IMG/VR virus record: IMGVR_UViG_2526164663_000038
Source of the DNA: a virus
Lineage: Duplodnaviria > Heunggongvirae > Uroviricota > Caudoviricetes
DNA length: 13,163 bases
Direction: 5' to 3' (one strand)
In this document: positions 1,963-13,163 of the stretch, in pieces
Layout: each line of letters starts with the position of its first letter
Numbering within the stretch: position 1 is the stretch's first letter
Notes under the pieces: model-generated
What the model saw: the letters and a program-made list of their open reading frames with translations, nothing else
Told to the model about the DNA's origin: nothing
Databases searched by the model: none
Program-made: the position numbers and the translations under genes

Positions 1963-2504
1963 TTAAAAATCAGCCTGACTCGGGATCAGTTTTTGCCAGA
2001 TAACTGAAACGTATTTTGCCTGGTAACGGGCGTCATCAAGTGCATTATGGCGCTCACCTTCGAATGGAATAGCCGTTCTGGCATCGAAGTCTATGGCTTT
2101 CCCCAGCTCAACGATTGTGCGTACATCGCGATCGTTGTAGTAACGCCACGGGCAGGGGATCCCCTGCCGTTCGTATGAACGGCGCAAAATCGTGTTGTCG
2201 AAGTTGGCTCCATTTCCCCAGACCTGAACAAAAAATTCACCGGAGTTTTCGTCGATAAATTCCCGCAATTGTAACAGTGCATCATCTAACGGGATTTCAT
2301 CGGTCATAATGGCAGATTGCGCTTCGCGTGATTGCTTAAGCCACCATTTAATGGTGTCCCGATCAATGACTCCGCCAGCAGTTTCCAGATCGATAGTCTT
2401 ACTAAATTCCGGTCCCATATCTCCGGTTTGCGGATCGAAAAATATTGCACCTATTGAGATGATCGGGGCATCAGGATTTTTCCCATGGTTTCAAGGTCGA
2501 TCAT
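1963..2504 (-). pseudogene. DEDDh (DnaQ-like) 3'-5' exonuclease domain, split by a -1 frame junction
   Basis: Exo I motif MIDLETMGK (ATG 2504) is in the frame of the upstream 366-aa ORF; the remainder (PDAPIISIGAIFFD..., Exo II FDNTIL, Exo III HNALDDARY) is the ORF 1963..2418 in the -1 frame; junction at GGGAAAA, plus 2478-2484. Confidence 0.7.
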
Positions 2505-3598
2505 TAGATGGTCACACGTCCTGCTGGTGGATGTGATTTCTTGATGACCGTTCACCTTAATTGGGTGATCTGCCGTCTCGCCAGTTTCATTATCGCTATC
2601 GTGATGCTGATTGCCGCCAGTGTTCTCCTTGTGTGGATGTTCAGCGCCTTCCATTTCCTCCGGATCATCTTCCTGAACTTCAACCTGATACTCTTCATCG
2701 AATGTTTCCTGGTATGTAGCGTCGCCCATCACCGCGCCACAATCAGGGCAGTTGCCGCCGCCGGTCTGACCGCAGGCGGTGCAGACTTTTTCCACTTCCT
2801 GTTGCACTACTGGTTCAGGTAGTTTCGTTTCTGGCTCGTTTTGTTGCGTATTTGGGCTGTTTTGTTCCGCTTTCTGGTCGTTCTGTTCCGTTTCTTGCTG
2901 GTTCTGGTTCACAGAATCGCGGGTTTCAATCCCCTTCACCCATTTCGGATCATTCGGGTCGCTAATCCCTGCAACAAATTCACCACGTGATGCGGCGAGC
3001 AACTGATTGGCGTCAGGCTGGCTGATATTGGCTGCCTGCATAATTTTCTTTACTTCGTCAGCGGTAACTTTTACCGGTTCTGGTTGTTCAGAATTTTGTG
3101 CGGTATTTGCATTTTGCGGTAAACCTGTGTATGTGCCATTTTTTCGGGCGAAATATTCTTCTTTCGTGATTTCAGTAGCCCCTGCAGCCAGTGCCTTATC
3201 CAGACCAGAAAGTTTGTTTGCGCGACCGTATTTTTCGCTATCCTTGTCGGTGAAGAGGAAGTAGAACGGCCCTTCACGCTCTACAGATGGTTCGACTTCC
3301 ACTTTGCATTCGGTTTTTTCGTTGTCCGGAATTGCCGTTTCCACTGCATCAGTTTCTGGTACTGGCGACGAGAGAGTATCAGTTGCGCTCTGATTTCTTC
3401 CTTCATCTTCAAACACGCCCTTTGTAGTCAGGTATTCAGTAATGTATTTGTTCAGTGCCACAGGGTCTTTGTGAATGTCGATCGGACGTTCACGGACAAG
3501 GCCAAAAATAGTCTGGCGGTCGTAGCGAAGGGCATCAGGCTGTTTGCGCATTGATGCCGAGATACGCTTCCAGTCTTCGCGGTCGTTGTCGATAACTT
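2451..3598 (-). pseudogene. Central segment of the large early-left gene: acidic, Gln/Glu/Asn-rich low complexity with CxxC-x7-CxxC zinc ribbon
   Basis: This frame is open from the slip site at 3599-3605 to 2451 and reads straight into MIDLETMG; motif CTACGQTGGGNCPDC; protein-like composition. Confidence 0.6.
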
Positions 3599-4142
3599 CT
3601 TTTTTGCCCAGCGATGGATGCTGCCGTCAATGTTTCCGGCATCCACATCACCAGGCCAGAGAGCGTAGGCCAGTTCGTCATCCAGTGTTTTCCATGTCTG
3701 CTTGTATTCGCGATGAGTGGCAGCAATGACCGGGCTGATTTTTCCTGTTGAATTTTCAGTGTTCTGTTGATTGGCTCTGGCGCGGGCGAGATCAACAACA
3801 GACGTGTATTTTCCGGTTTCCTTGCGTTCACCTTCGCGACGTTTTTTCCAGATGCGCATCTCTGCCTGAATTTCGGGCCATTTGGCACCAGGCTTACATT
3901 TATGCTTAACCCACCCGATGGCATGCAGCTTAAGCTCCGGATACATGGCGTTAACTTCTGGCATTTTCATCAACGCTTCAACGATATGTCCGTCGAATGT
4001 TGCCATGTCTTCCTGCAACAATTCCTGCGCGCTAATCACCATATCAACGGTGATGTTTTCACATGTGTCGAACTTAACCATGACAGCGTTCTGTACTTCA
4101 GGGGCCAGCTTGTCAAAAGTGACGTTCATCGGATCTGATTCA
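3599..4142 (-). pseudogene. Middle segment of the large early-left gene, from the IS junction to the slip site (possibly ydfE-like)
   Basis: Continues the frame of the 5414..5703 fragment once the IS and one TSD copy are removed (..PVET|ESDPMNVTFDKL..); the track ORF 3452..4168 begins with a GTG inside the IS end and runs out of frame after 3599. Confidence 0.6.
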
Positions 4143-5410
4143 TGAGGTAGCCTGAGTTTAACGGACACTCCTTCCTGAAATAGAATGGCATCAGAAGGAG
4201 CTAATAATGAGCAGAAAAACCCAACGTTACTCTAAAGAGTTCAAAGCCGAAGCTGTCAGAACGGTTCTTGAAAATCAACTTTCGATCAGTGAAGGCGCTT
4301 CCCGATTATCTCTTCCTGAAGGCACTTTAGGACAATGGGTTACCGCCGCCAGAAAAGGGCTCGGTACTCCTGGTTCCCGCACGGTGGCTGAACTGGAATC
4401 TGAAATTCTGCAACTGCGTAAGGCGTTAAATGAAGCTCGCCTTGAGCGAGTCGGAGATATTAAAAAAAGCAACAGCGTATTTTGCACAGGAGTCGCTGAA
4501 AAATACGCGTTAATCGAACAATGGCGACAACAATTTCCCATTGAAGCGATGTGTCAGGTATTTGGTGTATCCAGGAGCGGTTATTACAACTGGGTACAGC
4601 ATGAACCCTCAGACAGAAAACAAAGTGATGAGCGGCTAAAACTGGAGATTAAGGTGGCACATATCCGCACTCGCGAAACATATGGAACCCGGCGGCTCCA
4701 GACGGAGCTGGCAGAGAATGGCATCATCGTTGGTCGTGACCGACTGGCACGTCTTCGTAAGGAGCTAAGGCTACGCTGTAAGCAGAAACGCAAGTTCAGA
4801 GCGACTACGAACTCGAACCACAATCTGCCAGTTGCGCCAAATCTGCTGAACCAGACGTTCGCTCCTACAGCACCAAATCAGGTCTGGGTGGCGGACCTGA
4901 CGTATGTTGCCACACAGGAGGGATGGTTGTACCTCGCTGGCATCAAAGATGTTTATACGTGCGAAATTGTCGGCTACGCCATGGGAGAGCGCATGACAAA
5001 AGAGCTGACAGGTAAAGCTCTGTTTATGGCGCTCAGGAGCCAGCGCCCACCTGCCGGGCTAATCCACCACTCTGATCGAGGTTCACAGTACTGCGCATAC
5101 GATTACCGGGTCATACAGGAGCAGTTTGGTCTGAAAACATCAATGTCGCGTAAAGGTAACTGTTACGACAACGCTCCGATGGAAAGCTTCTGGGGAACGC
5201 TGAAAAATGAGAGCCTGAGCCACTATCGTTTTAATAACCGGGATGAAGCCATCTCAGTAATACGGGAATACATTGAGATTTTCTACAATCGTCAGCGTCG
5301 TCACTCTCGTCTGGGGAATATCTCCCCGGCAGCCTTCAGGGAAAAATATCATCAGATGGCTGCTTAAAAAAAGAACAAATGGTAGTGTCCGCTATTGCCA
5401 GTACACCTCA
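4143..5410 (+). mobile_element. IS3-family insertion sequence (IS600-like), 1268 bp
   Basis: Imperfect terminal inverted repeats TGAGGT...GGACAC (4143-4170) and its complement (5381-5410); flanking 3-bp direct repeat TCA at 4140-4142 and 5411-5413; DDE transposase inside. Confidence 0.85.
4207..5367 (+). CDS. IS3-family transposase, OrfA and OrfB fused in one frame (386 aa)
   Basis: N-terminal HTH and leucine zipper (LESEILQLRKALNEARLE); DDE catalytic region (VWVADLTYV, HHSDRGSQY, ESFWGTLKNE); N-terminus MSRKTQRYSKEFKAEAV matches my recollection of IS600 OrfA; SD GGAG upstream. Confidence 0.85.
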   Translation: MSRKTQRYSKEFKAEAVRTVLENQLSISEGASRLSLPEGTLGQWVTAARKGLGTPGSRTVAELESEILQLRKALNEARLERVGDIKKSNSVFCTGVAEKYALIEQWRQQFPIEAMCQVFGVSRSGYYNWVQHEPSDRKQSDERLKLEIKVAHIRTRETYGTRRLQTELAENGIIVGRDRLARLRKELRLRCKQKRKFRATTNSNHNLPVAPNLLNQTFAPTAPNQVWVADLTYVATQEGWLYLAGIKDVYTCEIVGYAMGERMTKELTGKALFMALRSQRPPAGLIHHSDRGSQYCAYDYRVIQEQFGLKTSMSRKGNCYDNAPMESFWGTLKNESLSHYRFNNRDEAISVIREYIEIFYNRQRRHSRLGNISPAAFREKYHQMAA

Positions 5411-5413
5411 TCA

Positions 5414-5703
5414 GTCTCAACCGGGACAAAGGAAGCAGACTCCTCATCCCAGCGGTTTTCCTGCATATATTCAGCATCCCAGGAATCGAGGGCAGGGCGG
5501 GGTATACCGGGTTTATCCTCGCAAACAAGAAATTTATAAGCGCAGTCCTGAGCAGCCGGATAATGTTCCAGGAATTGCCAGTGAAATTTTGCGCGGGCGC
5601 GACGTTCATCACCGGCTTCAATGGCAGTGGCTACAGCGACGGCACCTTCTTCCTTTATTGCCTGTTCGTCCGGAATGGCGGCGCAAATAAAGACTTTACT
5701 CAT
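5414..5703 (-). pseudogene. N-terminal fragment (97 codons) of the large early-left gene, truncated by the IS insertion
   Basis: ATG at 5703 with GAGG upstream; frame runs into the IS right end and resumes at 4142 after virtual excision. Confidence 0.6.
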
Positions 5704-5795
5704 TTTGTTTTAACCTCATTACAGATTTCAGGGTGAACGAATCCCTGCCATTGCTGGCATTTTTAATCCGTTGGTATGCGTTATATGGCTGCGGG

Positions 5796-5984
5796 TTATC
5801 CAGCCGGTATTTCGTTATTCAGGTTCAGCGATACTTTTTTTAACGGGAGGCATTCACCGGGGATTTTTTGTTCGTCCCTTACCTGAATGCAGGATGACTT
5901 ACTGTCATAAATTCCGGTAATCACATTTTGTGGCTCACCCGTTATAAGAAAAACGGTCATCACCAGTGCAAATGCTGAAGTCAC
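5796..5984 (-). CDS. ydfD: YdfD-like small membrane protein (62 aa)
   Basis: GTG start overlapping dicB stop (GTGA), GGAG 7 nt upstream; hydrophobic N-terminus SAFALVMTVFLITGEP and C-terminal EQKIPG...EIPAG pattern recalled for Qin YdfD. Confidence 0.6.
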   Translation of the reverse strand: MTSAFALVMTVFLITGEPQNVITGIYDSKSSCIQVRDEQKIPGECLPLKKVSLNLNNEIPAG

Positions 5985-6169
5985 TGCTGTTCTCCGATAA
6001 TACCAAGTTCAAGAAGGGCAATTCTGGAAAGTATGGAATTATCATTGAGAAGATAAGGTTCATATTTCCTCATCTTAATGGCATCTTCAGTAAACTCCCG
6101 GTTACTGAGCAGAACACCAATATCAAAACAACCTTCAGACGTATTAACGTTTGGTAATAACGTTTCCAT
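5981..6169 (-). CDS. dicB: Cell division inhibitor DicB homolog (62 aa)
   Basis: ATG at 6169 preceded by GAGGA; N-terminal half METLLPNVNTSEGCFDIGV...FTEDAI matches my recollection of E. coli DicB, C-terminal half differs; the track ORF start at 6274 is an upstream in-frame extension. Confidence 0.8.
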   Translation of the reverse strand: METLLPNVNTSEGCFDIGVLLSNREFTEDAIKMRKYEPYLLNDNSILSRIALLELGIIGEQQ

Positions 6170-6343
6170 TATCGCGTCCTCAACAATGAATTTTGTGATG
6201 CAGTGCCTGGTGCCTCCAGGTGACGTTAACCAGTTAACAATTAACGCCGGATACAGAGAATCCACCCATAACACTGTTTTTGGTTTTAACTGTTCCGCGT
6301 GCGCTCAGCCGCATTCACCGCATCACAAAATTCACTTTAAAAA

Positions 6344-6396
6344 GGGCGGCAGAGCAGTCACGGAGTAAAACTGATACCGCCAAACGTCACCAGAAA
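6344..6396 (-). ncRNA. dicF: DicF small regulatory RNA
   Basis: Minus strand reads TTTCTGGTGACGTTTGGCGGTATCAGTTTTACTCCGTGACTGCTCTGCCGCCC followed by TTTTT, matching the 53-nt DicF sequence as I recall it; sits just upstream of dicB as in Qin. Confidence 0.9.
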
Positions 6397-6657
6397 ATTG
6401 ATAACAGAGGGCGTTGCAGCGGGGTTGTCACTTAAGCGTATGGTCAACCTGACAACCCGGTGTCCTCAATGGGGAAGGAATAACCCCGCCATACTTACCG
6501 CCGCGCCATTTCGCGGATTGCCACAACCAGAAGCGCACGGTCGAAGAAATTTAACGACAAGACTTATATGCAAAGGGATCTCGCCGTGCGCTTTCGTGTT
6601 ATGCCCTGACTTTTCAGGGTAAATTAACCTGTGGAAACCTGTTTTTACTGGCGCTAA

Positions 6658-6810
6658 TCAGTTAGCGTTTCTTGCTAACCAGCGATGCGCGCCAGCTTCG
6701 GTTTTAAACGTTTTACTTCTGGTATACGTCATCGCGGTAAACGTGCCGTCGTGGTTGGGGAATACTCCGCACACCAGAGATTCATTGTTGCCAAGATTGA
6801 GCATATCCAT
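6658..6810 (-). CDS. Small early protein (50 aa), possibly YdfA/YdaF-like; first gene downstream of PL
   Basis: Not in the supplied track (under 60 aa). ATG at 6810 with GAGG 5 nt upstream; translation MDMLNLGNNESLVCGVFPNHDGTFTAMTYTRSKTFKTEAGAHRWLARNAN; position matches ydfA in the dicB operon. Confidence 0.5.
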   Translation of the reverse strand: MDMLNLGNNESLVCGVFPNHDGTFTAMTYTRSKTFKTEAGAHRWLARNAN

Positions 6811-6986
6811 GTTGACCTCATTTACCCTTAACGCCGGGTCGCGGAACTAAAAACCTGCTGCGCTGTTATACAAAGTGTTCCCGCCGTCATGTTCATACGC
6901 CTCGGGCTGGCTACTTAACCCCTGACCACTGCCGGGTAACTCGAGGTATTGCCCGACGTTCTGTGGGGCGAGGTAGGGTGGTATGT

Positions 6987-7035
6987 AATAAATCTAAAAG
7001 TATTTAGTTTTTCAGTCAAGATAAATCTAGATTAA
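6987..7035 (-). promoter_or_regulatory. Leftward early promoter PL with operator sites (OL)
   Basis: On the minus strand TTGACT (7019-7014), 17-nt spacer, TAGATT (6996-6991); overlapping operator-like inverted repeats AATCTA-N8-TAGTTT (6991-7010), AGTCAA-N8-TAGATT (7014-7033) and perfect palindrome AATCTAGATT (7024-7033). Confidence 0.55.
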
Positions 7036-7038
7036 TTT

Positions 7039-7063
7039 AAAAAAAAGGTCGGCATTGCCGACC
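7039..7063 (-). terminator. Rho-independent terminator of the repressor gene
   Basis: GGTCGGC-att-GCCGACC hairpin followed on the minus strand by a run of eight U; lies 22 nt downstream of the repressor stop. Confidence 0.7.
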
Positions 7064-7084
7064 TCAAGTAAAGGACGTGGCGGG

Positions 7085-7729
7085 TTATAAGTTGAACTGT
7101 ACACCTTTTGCTACGGCAACAATTTTACACTCTGGTGTAAGTAAGGATGACTGATAGCGTGGATTGAGAGGGCTTAAATACACAAGCTTCCCATCAATAA
7201 CTAATTTCTTTATAGTCATAGATGGTTCATTTTTAAGCGGATCCGGAACTATTACAGCGACGATGCTGCCATTTTTATAACTTTCTCCTGGCCTTAGGAT
7301 CACAGTAGCACCAACTGGGATACTCGGTGATCCTGATGGGTTATGCATTGTGTCATCAGGCATTGAAACGGCAAAATCACCTTCCTCGACATCAAAGAAT
7401 GTGGTGATCCTATCGACATTTCCCATTGTTTTCTCTCCTTTTAAGATTAGGAAAGAAATCGCCTCACCCCACGAAAGGTAGGGGATCTTGGTGCCTGAGG
7501 TACTTTGTACAAAAGATAATTCAGGAGACGATACTCCATATAGGAGATAGGACTCAGTAGTTCCTAATGCCTGGGCTAACTTACTTAGAGCTTTGCTACC
7601 TGGTTCGTTTAGATCTTTCTCCCAGTACCCTATAGTAACCCCAGTCACGCCTGAAAGCTTACCCAGTTCTACTTGGGTCAGCCCCTTATCTTTTCTAAGT
7701 CTCTTAAGCCTGATGCCAAGGCTTTCCAT
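7085..7729 (-). CDS. cI-type prophage repressor: N-terminal HTH_XRE plus C-terminal LexA-like S24 peptidase domain
   Basis: HTH LTQVELGKLSGVTGVTIGYWE; S24 signature Ser in FAVSMPD and Lys in TIKKLV; ATG at 7729 has AGGAGA 5 nt upstream (track ORF starts at TTG 7744). Confidence 0.85.
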   Translation of the reverse strand: MESLGIRLKRLRKDKGLTQVELGKLSGVTGVTIGYWEKDLNEPGSKALSKLAQALGTTESYLLYGVSSPELSFVQSTSGTKIPYLSWGEAISFLILKGEKTMGNVDRITTFFDVEEGDFAVSMPDDTMHNPSGSPSIPVGATVILRPGESYKNGSIVAVIVPDPLKNEPSMTIKKLVIDGKLVYLSPLNPRYQSSLLTPECKIVAVAKGVQFNL

Positions 7730-7744
7730 CATTTTCTCCTGCAA

Positions 7745-7825
7745 ATTGAATATAAATTATTTTAGATTGCATTGACCTAAAAAAATTATCTTGTAATCTA
7801 AAAATACTTAGATTTAGGAGGTAAA
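7745..7825. promoter_or_regulatory. Divergent immunity promoter/operator region (OR; PR rightward, PRM leftward)
   Basis: AT-rich 81-bp intergenic region between divergent repressor and cro; TTGACC (7772-7777) as candidate PR -35; inverted repeat AATCTA-N8-TAGATT (7795-7814) and extra TAGATT (7764-7769), same half-site as OL. Confidence 0.6.
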
Positions 7826-8053
7826 ATGCGAGTTGATGAACTTGTCCAGTTTTTTGGTTCTGTTCAGAGGGTTGCCGATTTTTATGGGATAACCCGCGAA
7901 GCTATTTACATGTGGCGTAAGCGTCCTGGTGAAATAGTTCCGAAGGGGAGGGCTGCGGAAGCTGCTGCATACTCCAAGGGGAAATTATCTTTGAACCCAG
8001 AACTTTACAAAAAGAAGGATACCACTCAGGGCGAAGGAAAGGGGGATTCATGA
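7826..8053 (+). CDS. Cro-like repressor, DicC-like (75 aa)
   Basis: Strong SD TAGGAGG; HTH-like FFGSVQRVADFYGITREAIYMW; divergent from repressor; overall pattern resembles recollection of DicC. Confidence 0.8.
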   Translation: MRVDELVQFFGSVQRVADFYGITREAIYMWRKRPGEIVPKGRAAEAAAYSKGKLSLNPELYKKKDTTQGEGKGDS

Positions 8054-8475
8054 AAATCAAACATGAGCACATCCGCATGGCGATCAATGCCTGGGCCTAT
8101 CCGGACGGTGAGAAAGTTCCTGCAGCTGAAATAGCCCGGACTTATTTCGAGCTGGGGATGACGTTCCCGGAACTGTACGACGACAGCCATCCGGAAGCCC
8201 TGGCTCGTAATACCCAGAAAATTTTCCGTTGGCTGGATAAAGACACCCCTGATGCTGTTGAAAAAATTCAGGCTCTGTTACCGGCGATCGAAAAGGCAAT
8301 GCCGCCTCTGCTGGTGGCCCGTATGCGCAGTCACAGCTCTGAATATTACCGTGAGATCGTCGAACGGAGGGATCGGCTGGTGAAAGATGTGGATGATTTT
8401 GTCGCAGCGGCGATCGCCTGGGGCACCCTGACTAACAGTGGTGGTCAGCCTGGTAATGCTGTTGTCGTGCATTGA
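8050..8475 (+). CDS. YdaT/CII-like regulatory protein (141 aa)
   Basis: ATGA overlap with cro stop; N-terminus MKIKHEHI recalled as typical of YdaT-family proteins encoded after cro-like genes in Rac-type prophages. Confidence 0.5.
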   Translation: MKIKHEHIRMAINAWAYPDGEKVPAAEIARTYFELGMTFPELYDDSHPEALARNTQKIFRWLDKDTPDAVEKIQALLPAIEKAMPPLLVARMRSHSSEYYREIVERRDRLVKDVDDFVAAAIAWGTLTNSGGQPGNAVVVH

Positions 8476-8543
8476 CCAACAATATTCATGCCGGATTTAT
8501 TCCGGATGTTCGAGGGTAAAGTTCGGTATCAGATGAGGTGAGT

Positions 8544-9581
8544 ATGGCTAATGCCTGGCTCAGATTGTGGCATGACATGCCAAATGATCCCAAATGGCGA
8601 ACCATTGCCAGGGTCTCAGGACAGCCAATCGCAACAGTGATGGCGGTGTATATCCACCTTCTGGTGAGTGCGTCACGAAATGTCACGACATGTCACGGCG
8701 TGTCACTACGTGGTCACATTGATGTCACGACGGAAGATTTAGCAAGTGCGCTTGATGTGACGGAAGACGTGATTGATTCAATTTTGCATGCAATGCAGGG
8801 GCGAGTTCTGGATGGTGATCTTATTTCCGGATGGGAAAAACGCCAGGTGATGAAGGAGGATAACGGTAATGTTTCGCAAACCGCAAAATCCCCGGCAGAG
8901 CGCAAGAGAGCGCAGCGGGAGCGGGAAAGACTGCGGAAGCAGAACACTGATTGTCACGATGAGTCACGACGCGTCACGCATATGTCACGACAAATCACGA
9001 CAGATACAGATACAGATAAAGAATTAAACCCCACACATAACGCGCGCATGCGCGAGAGTGCTACGACCGGTGAGTTGAATGACGCGTCGTTGCAGACAGC
9101 CGAACCTGAATACCTGGACGGCCTGAGCGAACCGATCGGGAAATTTCCGATGACTGGAGTCTGGCAACCGTCGCCGGATTTTCGACAGCGGGCAGCAGTG
9201 TGGGGTATGGCTCTGCCTGAGCCTGAGTTTACACCTGCTGAGCTTGCCGCATTCCGGGATTACTGGATGGCGGAGGGGAAGGTTTTCACGCAGGTTCAGT
9301 GGGAGCAGAAATTTGCCCGCCACGTGCAGCACGTCAGGGCACAGGTAAAACCAGTCAGCAAGGGGGTAAGCCATGCAGCACCAGGTGGCACCGCATCACG
9401 GGCAGTTCAGGAAATCCGGGCTGCACGCGAACAGTGGGAACGTGAAAACGGATTTATCAGCAACGGAAACGGCCTGGAAGCTGTGGGAGCTTATGGGGGA
9501 GGTGTATTCGAACCGCTGGACTCAGAAGAACGGGGCTGCGCCGTCGAAACTCTGGATTGCTCAGATTGGCGCGATGACTGA
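8544..9581 (+). CDS. Replication initiator, lambda O-like (origin inside the gene)
   Basis: ATG 8544 with GAGG upstream (track starts at GTG 8538); two arrays of phased direct repeats inside the coding sequence; immediately followed by a P-like gene. Confidence 0.6.
   Translation: MANAWLRLWHDMPNDPKWRTIARVSGQPIATVMAVYIHLLVSASRNVTTCHGVSLRGHIDVTTEDLASALDVTEDVIDSILHAMQGRVLDGDLISGWEKRQVMKEDNGNVSQTAKSPAERKRAQRERERLRKQNTDCHDESRRVTHMSRQITTDTDTDKELNPTHNARMRESATTGELNDASLQTAEPEYLDGLSEPIGKFPMTGVWQPSPDFRQRAAVWGMALPEPEFTPAELAAFRDYWMAEGKVFTQVQWEQKFARHVQHVRAQVKPVSKGVSHAAPGGTASRAVQEIRAAREQWERENGFISNGNGLEAVGAYGGGVFEPLDSEERGCAVETLDCSDWRDD
8672..8729. repeat. Iteron array 1: six direct repeats of GTCACG at 10-11 bp phasing
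   Basis: GTCACG-like hexamers start at 8672, 8682, 8692, 8702, 8713, 8724. Confidence 0.7.
8953..9030. repeat. Iteron array 2 (five GTCACG repeats at 10-11 bp phasing) followed by a GATACA x3 AT-rich tract
   Basis: Hexamers start at 8953, 8963, 8973, 8984, 8994; then cagatacagatacagataaagaattaaa. Confidence 0.7.
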
Positions 9582-10035
9582 ACAGCAAATCCGGCAGATC
9601 TGCCGTCGGTGCATGGACCGCTGCCGGGCGGGTGAAACGTGGCCTCCGGATCTGGCTGAGTTTGTGGCGTTGATTTCGGAGAGCGGGGCAAATCCATTTG
9701 GCCTGACGGTGGATGCCGTGATGGAGGAATACCGTCGCTGGAGGAATGAATCCTGGCGGTACGACGGGAGTGATAAATACCCGTGGCCACAGCCGGTGCT
9801 GTACCACATTTGCCTCGAGATGCGTTCAAAGGGGATTGAGCGCCAGATGACCGAAGGGGAGTTAAAACGGCTTGTGGAAAGGCAGCTGACGAAATGGGCA
9901 AAGCATGTTGGTAATGGCCTCAGTGTTCCGCCAGTCCGGCGACAACTGGCAGCACCCAAACGCCCGCCAGGGCCAACGCCAATTGAATTGCTGAAACAGG
10001 AATATGAGCGCCGGAAGGCGGCCGGTTTTGTCTGA
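9493..10035 (+). CDS. Replication protein P-like helicase loader
   Basis: MTEQQ...[15 protein letters not shown]...KYPW...[10 protein letters not shown]...[14 protein letters not shown] parallels lambda P MEQV...PFLPSPGQFVAWCRE...SYPW...AHYWLVTNLY...LTDAELRRKAADEL (recollection). Start uncertain: in-frame candidates at 9373, 9493, 9574; overlaps the 3' end of the O-like gene. Confidence 0.65.
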
Positions 10036-10069
10036 GTTGAGAAGTAATTTTTACCGGGAGGAAAATTTA

Positions 10070-10768
10070 ATGGAAACCGTTTTTGACGCACTGAAAGCAC
10101 TGAAAAAAGCCTCGTCGCACGAGATTGCAGCCCGTCTTGAAATCAGCCGTGACGATGCTGTTACCGAACTCTGGAAGCTGAAGCGTCGTGGCGAAGCTGA
10201 TAACAAGGGGTCGATGTGGTGGCTGACGAGTGAGGCAACTGAAGCGGCCCCAAAAACCACTGCAGAGATGCTGATTAACGCGATTGAACAGCATGGTCCT
10301 CAGTCGGCTGACGAACTGGCGTTAATGTTCGGGATTACCTCCCGCCGGGCGAATTCATCACTGGCGATGGCTGTCAGCAAAGGTCGTCTGATTCGCGTAA
10401 ATCAGGACGGTCAATATCGTTACTGCATACCGGGCGATAATTTACCGGCAGAGCCGAAAGCTGCATCGGTAACGGAAACCGATGGTAAAGCCTTTCCTCA
10501 GCCGGCAGGTGTTGCGTTACCAGTCCGGGAAGCGGAAACACAGGAAGAAATTAAAACTGAAAGTGTGGCGGTCACAGTGCAGTCACAGTCGTCGTTCATC
10601 AGAAAGCATCCGGATGGTCTGATTTTACCATCGCTGCATGTGGCTAACCGCGAGCTGCGCCGGGCAAAAGGTCAGGTTCAGAAGTGGGAGCGCTTATGCG
10701 CCGCGCTGCGGGAAATTAATAAGCATCGTGATGTCATACAGAAAATAACGACAGGAGATAACGGGTAA
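10070..10768 (+). CDS. Hypothetical protein with two winged-helix-like segments (233 aa)
   Basis: ATG 10070 with GGGAGG 8 nt upstream (track ORF starts earlier at 10004); helix-turn-helix-like segments [28 protein letters not shown] and [32 protein letters not shown]. Confidence 0.55.
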
Positions 10769-10789
10769 TTTTTACAGCAGGGTGATGAT

Positions 10790-11014
10790 ATGAAAATCAG
10801 ATATCATGATTTCGGCCCCGTGTCACATATGCTTATTTCCAGTACGGTGCTGGAAACAAGAAAACATAATCACATACTGGATATGCTGCGTCTTGCTGAC
10901 CCGTATCTGGTAATAAACACCAGTGGAATTTTCTTTCTGAGAAGCACTGTGTCAGGAAAAACATCGCATGTGCTTCGGGCATATAAAACAGCAGTGCGGG
11001 AGGAAGGAGAATGA
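10790..11014 (+). CDS. Hypothetical small protein (74 aa)
   Basis: ATGA overlap with the next gene; weak SD; no recognisable motif. Confidence 0.35.
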   Translation: MKIRYHDFGPVSHMLISSTVLETRKHNHILDMLRLADPYLVINTSGIFFLRSTVSGKTSHVLRAYKTAVREEGE

Positions 11015-11367
11015 GCGAGATTAACTATCAGGAGCTGCGTGTTGAGCTGGGAGCAGCAAAAAAACGCATAGAAGAGCTGGAGGCTAATCGTGTGGTGCTT
11101 GAGGTGGAAAATGAGAGGTTGAAACACGCAATGGCCGTAGCCCTTGAGCATATATCCGTCACAGATGCAGGACAGGCAGGTGTCGCTGCAATGATTATCT
11201 ATGATGCCATGTACCACAGTGAAAAAACTGACCCCTACGCTTTTCTGGCAGAATTGCGGGCGCAGGGTGTGGAGATGGTGCGCGAACATCCAGCAATCAA
11301 ACTTTGCTCTTTGACGCACATATGTGACGAGTTAGTCGCAGAGCTTCGCAAAGGAGGCAACAAGTGA
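11011..11367 (+). CDS. Hypothetical protein with N-terminal coiled coil (118 aa)
   Basis: Strong SD AGGAAGGAGA; heptad-like ELRVELGAAKKRIEELEANRVVLEVENERLK. Confidence 0.55.
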   Translation: MSEINYQELRVELGAAKKRIEELEANRVVLEVENERLKHAMAVALEHISVTDAGQAGVAAMIIYDAMYHSEKTDPYAFLAELRAQGVEMVREHPAIKLCSLTHICDELVAELRKGGNK

Positions 11368-11552
11368 GTAAAACGAATCCGGGCTGGGCAAGGCCACTTA
11401 TGGCGAAAAAGCATCATTATTTTGCTGAAGGTGAAATAACAAGTACTTGCGGTGGGTGGATGTATTTTGGCAATGAGCGTGAGCCGGATACATTCGAAAG
11501 TCCAGATGATTGTAAAAAGTGTCGTAGAAAATTAAATAAGGGGGGTAAATGA
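11364..11552 (+). CDS. Small Cys-containing protein, putative zinc ribbon (62 aa)
   Basis: GTG start with AAGGAGG 6 nt upstream, GTGA overlap with upstream stop; Cys pattern STCGGW...CKKC. Confidence 0.5.
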   Translation: MSKTNPGWARPLMAKKHHYFAEGEITSTCGGWMYFGNEREPDTFESPDDCKKCRRKLNKGGK

Positions 11553-11860
11553 GCGCAATTAAAGAAATGCCAGTGGAACGTAATGAATATGGCTGCTGGA
11601 CGCATCCTGAATATGAAAAATTCTGTGATGGTCGGGAATATATTTCAACGGAAGAGTTTAACGCCTGGATGGAGAAAAATAATCTTCAGTGGGCTATCCG
11701 TAGTATGGATGAAGATGATTTTAATCTGGACGCAGATGGCCCTGATATTTCAGCATGGGAACCTGAGCGACCAGAAGGTGAGGGATGGTTTATCGGTTCG
11801 ATACATGACACCGAAGATGGTCCTGTTTGTGTATGGCTGAGAAATAAGGCCGAAGCATAA
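11549..11860 (+). CDS. Hypothetical acidic protein (103 aa)
   Basis: ATGA overlap with upstream gene, GGGGGG SD; Trp-rich acidic sequence. Confidence 0.5.
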   Translation: MSAIKEMPVERNEYGCWTHPEYEKFCDGREYISTEEFNAWMEKNNLQWAIRSMDEDDFNLDADGPDISAWEPERPEGEGWFIGSIHDTEDGPVCVWLRNKAEA

Positions 11861-11986
11861 AGGCTATAAACCAACAACTAAACACTGAAAATTTAAATCA
11901 GAAATGATTTTTATTAAATCCTTAACCGGAGGGATTCCTGCACCCTCAGAACATCAGGAGACCGCCCGAAAGGGCGGTAGTGAAAA

Positions 11987-12550
11987 ATGACTGAATTAAC
12001 CAAAGAATGGCTACAGTACACGATTACCGGAATTGAGTCATCACGGGATGAAATACCGTTCGGACTCGATGAAGATCAAAACAACATGCTTACCGCATTA
12101 AAAATTGCACTGGCATCACTGGCATCAGTATCGGATGAACGGGCAGCCTATGAATTATTTATGGAGAAGCGTTTCGGGGAATCTGTAGATCGCCGCAGAG
12201 CAAAAAATGGCGATAGAGAATACATGGCATGGGATATGGCGCTTGGCTGGATTATCTGGTGTCACCGCGCCGCCATGCTTCAGGCTGGAAACTTTCGGGA
12301 AAATAAGGGTTCGTCAACCAATAATTTTCGGATAATCTCGGAAACGTCAACCAACTCTCCGGCAATCCCTGATGAGGTGTTGTCCGCAATCCTGAAGGTC
12401 GCCAGGCTTCGTGCAGATTTCGATGCTTCTGAAGTGGACAGGCGAGGTATCGGTAGTTGTCTGGATGAGGCCGAGCAAGAACTTATCGTTACCATTAACG
12501 AATACGCCAGTCAGATCGCAGTAGAAGCGACACAGGGGGAGAACCAATGA
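11987..12550 (+). CDS. Hypothetical protein (187 aa)
   Basis: Long ORF with protein-like composition; preceded by two hairpins instead of a clear SD; its stop overlaps the start of a 25-codon hydrophobic ORF. Confidence 0.55.
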   Translation: MTELTKEWLQYTITGIESSRDEIPFGLDEDQNNMLTALKIALASLASVSDERAAYELFMEKRFGESVDRRRAKNGDREYMAWDMALGWIIWCHRAAMLQAGNFRENKGSSTNNFRIISETSTNSPAIPDEVLSAILKVARLRADFDASEVDRRGIGSCLDEAEQELIVTINEYASQIAVEATQGENQ

Positions 12551-12624
12551 GCCGGCCAGATGCATTTGCAGGCGTTGCTATAGCTATTGCTTTTCTAGTA
12601 TATGTTATTTGTCGGTGGGGGTAA
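12547..12624 (+). CDS. Putative 25-aa single-helix hydrophobic peptide
   Basis: Not in the track. ATGA overlap with the 187-aa gene stop; MSRPDAFAGVAIAIAFLVYVICRWG. Confidence 0.3.
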   Translation: MSRPDAFAGVAIAIAFLVYVICRWG

Positions 12625-12659
12625 AAACGTTCGCCGGGATTCACACCAAGGGAGGGAAT

Positions 12660-12764
12660 ATGTCGGATGATATTTCACTGGTAATGGAAGGCGCTCTGGC
12701 TGTTATTGCTGTTGTGGGTGTTTACTGCCTGGTTGTGTTTTTGATGGAGCGCCTGGGGAACTGA
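12660..12764 (+). CDS. Putative 34-aa single-helix hydrophobic peptide
   Basis: Not in the track. ATG 12660 preceded by AAGGGAGGG; MSDDISLVMEGALAVIAVVGVYCLVVFLMERLGN. Confidence 0.4.
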   Translation: MSDDISLVMEGALAVIAVVGVYCLVVFLMERLGN

Positions 12765-13007
12765 ATTCATTCCGTATGGGAATTCCCATATCGGGCAAAA
12801 CGGTTTGCTGTAAAGCGAGAGTTAAGTAGAATTGCTGCGGGTGCTTGAGGCTGTCTGCCTCGGGCATGCCACCGTAAGGCAGACAGAGAAAAGCCCCAGT
12901 TAACATTACGCGTCCTGCAAGACGCTTAACATTAATCTGAGGCCCAATCTATGCTTCACAAACGTAGGTTAGCCTCTTACGCGCCGAAAGGCAAGGAGAA
13001 GCAGGTT

Positions 13008-13163
13008 ATGAAGCAGCAAAAGGCGATGTTAATCGCCCTGATCGTCATCTGTTTAACCGTCATAGTGACGGCACTGGTAACGAGGAAAGACCTCTGCGAG
13101 GTACGAATCCGAACCGGCCAGACGGAGGTCGCTGTCTTCACAGCTTACGAACCTGAGGAGTAA
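13008..13163 (+). CDS. hokD: Hok-family type I toxin (51 aa), HokD/RelF-like
   Basis: MKQQKAMLIALIVICLTVIVTALVTRKDLCEVRIRTGQTEVAVFTAYEPEE matches my recollection of E. coli HokD; SD AAGGAG 9 nt upstream; structured leader; in-frame upstream ATG at 12951 gives the 70-codon track ORF. Confidence 0.85.
   Translation: MKQQKAMLIALIVICLTVIVTALVTRKDLCEVRIRTGQTEVAVFTAYEPEE

Follow-up and report, generated by a model that had tools for sequence, protein, structure and literature searches.

The question raised by this locus is whether the segment interrupting a large prophage gene corresponds to the simple insertion of a known mobile element, and whether the reading frames found in and around it, among them a transposase gene that is open in a single frame, can be read as they stand. 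The window analysed, a stretch of 13,163 nt assigned to the Caudoviricetes, is 100% identical over its whole length to contig AIGR01000022.1 of the draft assembly GCA_000250035.2.

Megablast comparison indicates that the segment between positions 4143 and 5410 is a complete copy of IS600, a member of the IS3 family, sharing 99.6% identity over 1268 nt with copies named "IS3-like element IS600 family transposase" by RefSeq. By the convention in use at ISfinder, copies with more than 95% DNA identity are regarded as the same element. IS600 was first described in Shigella sonnei, and it was detected here by megablast in 3,487 of the 5,426 complete E. coli genomes, many of which contain multiple copies (up to 43 places per genome). 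The ends of the element were placed by a three-way alignment of the window with two canonical copies of 1264 bp having unrelated flanks, one being located in a ninF gene and the other between lacY and lacZ. In this alignment the identity starts at TGAGGTAGCC (4143) and stops at GTACACCTCA (5410), with TGAGGT...ACCTCA at the tips. The two terminal inverted repeats (Table 1) agree with each other at 19 of 27 positions, with the outermost TGAGGT and, further inside, GCGGACACT among the matching stretches. They were not reported by an inverted-repeat finder run on positions 4100-5450, their longest exact seed being short and the repeats too imperfect; indeed, the element is not considered a chance pattern because it is 99.6% identical to IS600 over its whole length, and not because of its inverted repeats.

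The insertion is bordered on both sides by the trinucleotide TCA, and other IS600 copies are likewise flanked by 3-bp duplications (CGC, GGT and GAC in the three cases recorded). The site before insertion was searched for with a query in which 600 nt of the left flank, including one TCA, were joined to 600 nt of the right flank. These joined flanks align in one unbroken piece in ca. 795 complete E. coli genomes, with identities of up to 99.1%, as well as in phage records, for example those of Escherichia phage 204576 (97.8%) and PPompW/Stx2a phages (93.4%). In uninterrupted homologues, including that of JNE132847, the sequence is GGATCTGATTCAGTCTCAACC with a single TCA, the exact site having been read at two loci, so that the empty allele consists of the left flank, one copy of the duplication and the right flank. 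A simple transposition into the gene, rather than a rearrangement or a composite element, is thus fully supported by these comparisons. Together with the imperfect TG...CA terminal repeats, the short target duplication (3 bp, as in the IS3 group), the near-identity over the whole element to RefSeq-named copies and a transposase having an HTH, a coiled-coil, a DD(35)E rve core and a match to the curated family model, they agree with the preliminary description of the locus, which had proposed an IS3-family insertion with imperfect terminal repeats and a TCA/TCA duplication in a large gene: uninterrupted homologues do exist, and the alignment fixes the ends of the element where they had been placed.

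Table 1. Position of the IS600 copy, of the interrupted exonuclease gene and of associated signals in the window
Feature	Position	Strand	Details
IS600 copy	4143..5410	+	1268 bp, against 1264 bp for the canonical element; full-length identity and ends fixed by alignment
Left terminal inverted repeat (IRL)	4143..4169	+	Begins 5'-TG; 19/27 positions match the right end when reverse-complemented
Right terminal inverted repeat (IRR)	5384..5410	+	Ends CA-3'; direct alignment of both ends
Target duplication TCA, left copy	4140..4142		Single TCA in empty sites
Target duplication TCA, right copy	5411..5413		Same right junction in GCA_002734985.1
Fused orfA-orfB transposase ORF, 386 codons	4207..5367	+	HTH_Tnp_1, HTH_21 and rve core; D230, D290, E326, K333
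Sequence change seen in none of the other IS600 copies searched	4450..4456	+	+GTCG (4450-4453) and T>G (4456)
A7G slippery run	4462..4469	+	Programmed -1 frameshift site in canonical IS600
Hairpin just 3' of the slippery run, usual position of a frameshift stimulator	4471..4511	+	Minimum free energy -13.1 kcal/mol, z = -2.95
Exonuclease gene, 5' fragment	5411..5703	-	Codons 1-97 plus 2 nt; Pfam YdfE_N
Exonuclease gene, 3' remainder	1963..4142	-	Codons 98-823 of the intact homologue; C-terminal Rv2179c-like domain
Promoter-like site for the transposase (TTAACG-17-TAGAAT), inward-facing, in the IRL	4158..4186	+	Only sigma-70-like match in 3900-5800
GTG inside the IRL	4166..4168	-	Opens ORF 3452-4168 (238 codons), which shares the frame of the gene segment downstream
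First ATG after the IS (native Met102)	4127..4129	-	Start of the 225-residue fragment in the deposited annotation

IS600 interrupts an exonuclease gene of 823 codons on the minus strand, the insertion having taken place after nucleotide 293 of the CDS, at codon 97/98, with the element lying antisense to the gene. The intact homologue in JNE132847 is a gene of 2,472 nt annotated as "exonuclease" (823 residues), which is located after dicB and a DUF1482 gene and before the excisionase and integrase genes; in the window, an Rfam search detected DicF at positions 6344-6395 of the minus strand. The position of DicF and the gene neighbours therefore place the gene in a leftward operon of the dicBF type (dicF-dicB-DUF1482-exo-xis-int) belonging to a Qin-like lambdoid prophage of E. 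coli, and "large early-left gene", as it had been called before, is a fair label for a gene that follows DicF/dicB and precedes xis/int. The product combines N-terminal and middle regions of the YdfE type with an Rv2179c-like C-terminal domain: precomputed Pfam matches on the gene fragments correspond to YdfE_N and YdfE_C, and the Rv2179c-like 3'-5' exonuclease domain (PF16473) occupies residues 642-813 of the intact protein (E = 6.9e-68) and was also found by Pfam on the last fragment in the window (E = 1.3e-49). The insertion inactivates the gene: the catalytic domain is cut off from the gene start, with over 540 codons between it and the insertion or any start following the IS. What is left of the 5' part is an ORF of 103 codons (5392-5703) composed of 97 native codons followed by six IS-encoded residues, DEVYWQ, and a stop. 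The assignment of this gene as a RecE/exodeoxyribonuclease VIII equivalog was considered and rejected, as the match to NF007259 reaches only 277.6 bits for a cutoff of 1269 and covers only positions 270-602 of the 877 in the model.

Removal of the IS does not by itself give back a complete exonuclease gene. Deleting positions 4143-5413 joins SFVPVET directly to ESDPMNVTFDKL in one frame, and the uninterrupted frame announced in the preliminary description is in this respect recovered locally; the resulting ORF however extends over 328 codons and not over the full 823. Alignment against the intact homologue reveals 56 mismatches in 2461 nt together with two further deletions of 1 nt in the window. 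The first, at ca. 3599/3600, corresponds to TTCATTTTTTG in the homologue and to TTCTTTTTTG in the window, and the second, at ca. 2481/2482, to a run of six T in the homologue and of five T in the window, both deletions being thus found at T-runs. In the GCA_000250035.2 sequence the frame is lost after native codon 277, and the ORF fragments made by these deletions, of 225 and 336 residues, are recorded for no other assembly. Comparison with a second assembly, GCA_002734985.1, over 7 kb that are otherwise identical further indicates that the window lacks 1 nt in each of three homopolymer runs. The two additional frameshifts in the exonuclease gene are thus probably homopolymer undercalls, and the pattern of deletions points to undercalls of flow sequencing, the platform being putative, rather than to biology.

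The transposase gene raises a related issue. Canonical IS600 encodes an OrfA of 100 residues and, through -1 slippage at the A7 run, an OrfAB of 385 residues, and canonical copies carry a "programmed frameshift" annotation in RefSeq. In the three-way alignment, the copy in the window is identical to the canonical ones apart from a single change (4450-4456), by which the string GAGCGAGTCGGAGATATT in the fused frame stands in place of the canonical GAGCGAGATATATT. The 4 additional nt upstream shift what follows into precisely the -1 frame and therefore result in one ORF of 386 codons. Its product matches the IS3 transposase model NF033516 (transpos_IS3) in one stretch over model positions 1-369, with 398.5 bits for a cutoff of 160, and scores above the cutoff for PF01527, PF13276 and PF00665. 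It corresponds to the canonical OrfAB except for residues 82-84, where DIL is replaced by VGDI (82-85), with the DD(35)E motif and the K intact; as a result of this replacement, the Leu of the last coiled-coil heptad is lost and a Gly is gained. The slippery run and the hairpin located 3' of it (inverted repeat 4475-4486/4497-4508, 92% complementary) have been kept, yet the frames are already fused by the change upstream.

Whether this fusion is genuine was addressed by looking for it elsewhere. BLAST searches with an 83-nt probe detected only the canonical version, at 94.0%, both in the complete E. coli genomes (5,426) and in a set of 72,556 plasmids, 129 of them Shigella records; exact-pattern scans of GTDB representative genomes and JGI metagenomes gave 0 matches to the fused variant, and an exact-protein look-up returned no record of the 386-residue product. 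As every other sequence covered by these searches lacks the variant, nothing indicates that it has spread. In addition, the change gives rise at positions 4448-4457 to GAGTCGGAGA, a 10-mer present in the reverse complement of adaptor A of the 454/Ion Torrent systems, CCATCTCATCCCTGCGTGTCTCCGACTCAG, an adaptor used on 454 instruments. This is the only 10-mer in the window that matches adaptor A or B on either strand, ca. one being expected by chance in 13 kb, and only 3 of the 4096 possible 6-mers replacing AT at this site would give an adaptor match of 10 or more (p ca. 7e-4, for a coincidence that was noticed post hoc). The same adaptor sequence appears in 378 papers and has been used as an adapter-specific primer (PMC4162668). 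Because the adaptor 10-mer occurs together with the homopolymer errors of the draft, which is 1 nt short in three runs and has both gene frameshifts at T-runs, we lean towards the view that the 4 nt fusing orfA and orfB are an error of the draft assembly, in which case the element would be a canonical IS600 with a normal -1 frameshift control.

Several observations weigh against such an error. A gain of 4 nt with one substitution is not of the homopolymer kind, no worked mechanism places adaptor bases at an internal consensus position with the reading still in register, and the sequencing platform is putative. The GCA_002734985.1 contig, which stops 62 nt inside the IS, says nothing on position 4450. 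The change is located ca. 310 nt from the end of the IS, within reach of reads of ca. 400 nt anchored in the unique flank, and if recorded by such reads it would be specific to this copy and real. A private mutation of an ordinary IS600 insertion, leaving a natural copy with a permanent fusion of orfA and orfB, is therefore possible, though we regard it as the less probable origin of the 4-nt change. It would agree with a 386-codon frame that is open and collinear with the transposase model, with differences from the canonical OrfAB confined to residues 82-85, with a gain of nucleotides that gives exactly the -1 frame downstream, and with the identity of the remainder of the copy to canonical IS600, as expected of a recent event. 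There is also an experimental precedent in IS2, where engineering A6G into A7G makes OrfAB the principal product (PMC3219604). Against it stand, besides the lack of any match in the collections searched and the adaptor coincidence, the demonstrable indel errors of the draft and the prospect that a fused product may be inactive anyway, point mutations in the leucine-zipper-like motif of IS2 being known to abolish transposase function (PMC3219604).

If real, the fusion would result in a constitutive full-length OrfAB produced without ribosomal frameshifting and in the loss of the OrfA regulator, and circle formation and transposition should rise by analogy with the engineered frame-fused IS2, IS911 and IS3; the other outcome would be a dead transposase, should the replacement of DIL by VGDI break the coiled coil. 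A confirmed fusion would represent a modestly interesting natural escape of an IS3-family element from frameshift control and the spontaneous counterpart of the hyperactive IS2 and IS911 constructs, in an IS600-rich pathogenic E. coli lineage. Neither the fused transposase ORF nor the extra frameshifts of the draft, which lie next to clear signs of flow-sequencing indel errors and an adaptor-like 10-mer, are to be taken at face value.

A further proposal of the preliminary description concerned the fate of the 3' part of the exonuclease gene, for which the left end of the IS would supply both transcription and translation starts, giving rise to an N-terminally truncated exonuclease initiated at the GTG at 4168. 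This GTG is indeed in frame with the downstream gene segment, and the ends of IS3-family elements are generally enriched in proto-promoters, at least 26% of characterised IS3s being estimated to encode promoters (PMC12095673). In the region scanned (3900-5800), no outward-facing sigma-70-like site was found on the minus strand at or near the IRL, the only match being the one facing inward, and the counts of sigma-70-like matches were not above shuffle expectation. No usable ribosome-binding site was identified for the GTG either: the only Shine-Dalgarno-like motif, AAGGAG, overlaps or abuts it with zero spacer, and the deposited annotation starts the fragment at the ATG at 4129. Moreover, a frame opened at this point would, in the GCA_000250035.2 sequence, be broken after codon 277 and fall short of the exonuclease domain (codons 642-813), and read-through from the leftward promoter of the prophage would be a simpler source of any transcript of the fragment. 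Although not absurd in view of what has been reported for IS3 ends (PMC12095673), expression driven by the IS is without support here; the in-frame GTG stands, while the truncated product that it was thought to initiate appears very improbable.

The insertion itself is not confined to a single assembly. The chimeric ORF of 103 residues is on record on two contigs, AIGR01000022.1 and BEJV01000100.1, the latter from GCA_002734985.1, and BEJV01000100.1 displays the same right junction, with GTTGAGACTGA directly followed by TGAGGTGTACTGG. Because this second assembly has both the junction and the chimeric ORF, the insertion is considered real and common to a lineage, and its occurrence in at least one other assembly indicates that it is inherited. 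The possibility that a multi-copy repeat had been mis-assembled in a draft having indel errors, with no true insertion at the site, was rejected as scarcely credible given that the 3-bp duplication is perfect at both junctions and single in empty sites, and that the right junction is identical in an independent assembly. A probe for the left junction found no identical insertion in the complete E. coli genomes, the sole near-match being E. coli EH031 (NZ_AP027162.1). In EH031 an independent IS600 insertion occurs in the homologous prophage gene, in the same orientation and with a 3-bp duplication, but at a site 27 bp away, with GAC as the duplicated sequence and with a canonical IS of 1264 bp that has two SNPs. 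The two halves of the EH031 exonuclease gene are annotated by RefSeq as pseudogene fragments.

Overall, the reading that we consider probable, with some reserve as to its second part, is that IS600 entered the prophage exonuclease gene by transposition at codon 97/98 and that the fused frame and the frameshifts at T-runs are errors of the draft. The event, whose element, ends, duplication, intact catalytic triad, empty site and disrupted gene are seen directly, would have followed the copy-out/paste-in pathway established for the IS3 family: OrfAB would cut one end of the element, leading to a figure-of-eight and then to a minicircle; the abutted ends would be integrated by the DDE transposase at a staggered 3-bp cut in the target; and repair of this cut would generate the TCA duplication. 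It is an ordinary event of an already known kind, insertions of IS600 in prophage genes being routine in E. coli and Shigella, and it matters little in itself, as the gene is already recorded by RefSeq as split in an equivalent manner in EH031. In the lineage concerned the exonuclease gene is inactivated, and its interruption by IS600 could be of use as a marker of that lineage.

With respect to known systems, the interrupted gene resembles recE of the Rac prophage in being a large gene located just upstream of xis/int in a leftward operon and in having a similar central region, but differs from it in that its C-terminal catalytic domain is the Rv2179c-like domain PF16473 and not the RecE nuclease. 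The IS copy shares with canonical IS600 the TGAGGT...ACCTCA ends, the 3-bp duplication, the A7G run with its downstream hairpin and the whole transposase outside residues 82-85, and departs from it by its length (1268 instead of 1264 bp) and by the gain of 4 nt with one substitution that fuses orfA and orfB. Fused orfAB derivatives have been made in the laboratory for IS911, IS3 and IS150 as well as for IS2. If the change is real, the window copy would share with the engineered frame-fused IS2 an orfB set in the frame of orfA and an OrfAB produced without ribosomal slippage (PMC3219604). This copy, which would be natural and not constructed and which may not be real, would nevertheless differ from the laboratory fusions in its architecture: in these, one base has been added or removed within the slippery run and the protein junction has been kept, whereas in the window 4 nt have been added 6-12 nt upstream of the run.

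The IS600 junction is identical in the window and in L005 (BEJV01000100.1, a contig of GCA_002734985.1). The two assemblies diverge strongly in the DUF1482/dicB segment adjoining the insertion (ca. 5760-6120). Beyond this segment, from 6122 to 13163, the window is identical to L005, apart from the homopolymer lengths given below. From sequence comparison, this pattern suggests that the DUF1482/dicB segment may have undergone mosaic replacement next to a common IS600 insertion. A less likely alternative is that IS600 hit this site twice. A canonical IS600 also occurs in the homologous exonuclease gene of E. coli EH031, where it is independent of the window copy, lying 27 bp away in the same orientation with GAC as target duplication; the two nearby insertions could reflect either a local hot spot or coincidence.

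In the window copy, a GTCG insertion and a T>G change at 4450-4456 join orfA and orfB, the two transposase reading frames, into a single ORF of 386 codons. This variant was absent from all other sequences searched, and because of it positions 4448-4457 form the sole 10-mer of the window matching the 454/Ion adaptor A. When compared to the intact homologue, the exonuclease gene (minus strand) carries two further 1-nt deletions, at ca. 3599/3600 and 2481/2482, both located at T-runs. Since the resulting ORF fragments are confined to the source assembly, these deletions are probably sequencing undercalls. Three other homopolymers (G4, A8 and A7 at 6471, 7039 and 7779, respectively) each lack one base relative to the L005 contig, which is otherwise identical around them.

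Coordinates of further features in the window and of the IS600 copy in EH031
Feature	Sequence	Position	Strand	Description
DicF small RNA	window	6344-6395	-	Rfam RF00039, 76.7 bits
cI-like repressor ORF	window	7085-7744	-	open, 219 codons, TTG start
sok antitoxin RNA	window	12839-13013	+	RF01794, 114.9 bits
hok-like ORF	window	12951-13163	+	overlaps sok RNA; extends to window end
Canonical IS600	NZ_AP027162.1 (EH031)	3728-4991		in homologous exonuclease gene

In L005, a 214-residue product is called for the cI-like repressor. At this ORF, the source contig was deposited with just a 44-residue product. Finally, the location of DicF upstream of dicB identifies this arm as an operon of the dicBF type, belonging to a Qin-like prophage.
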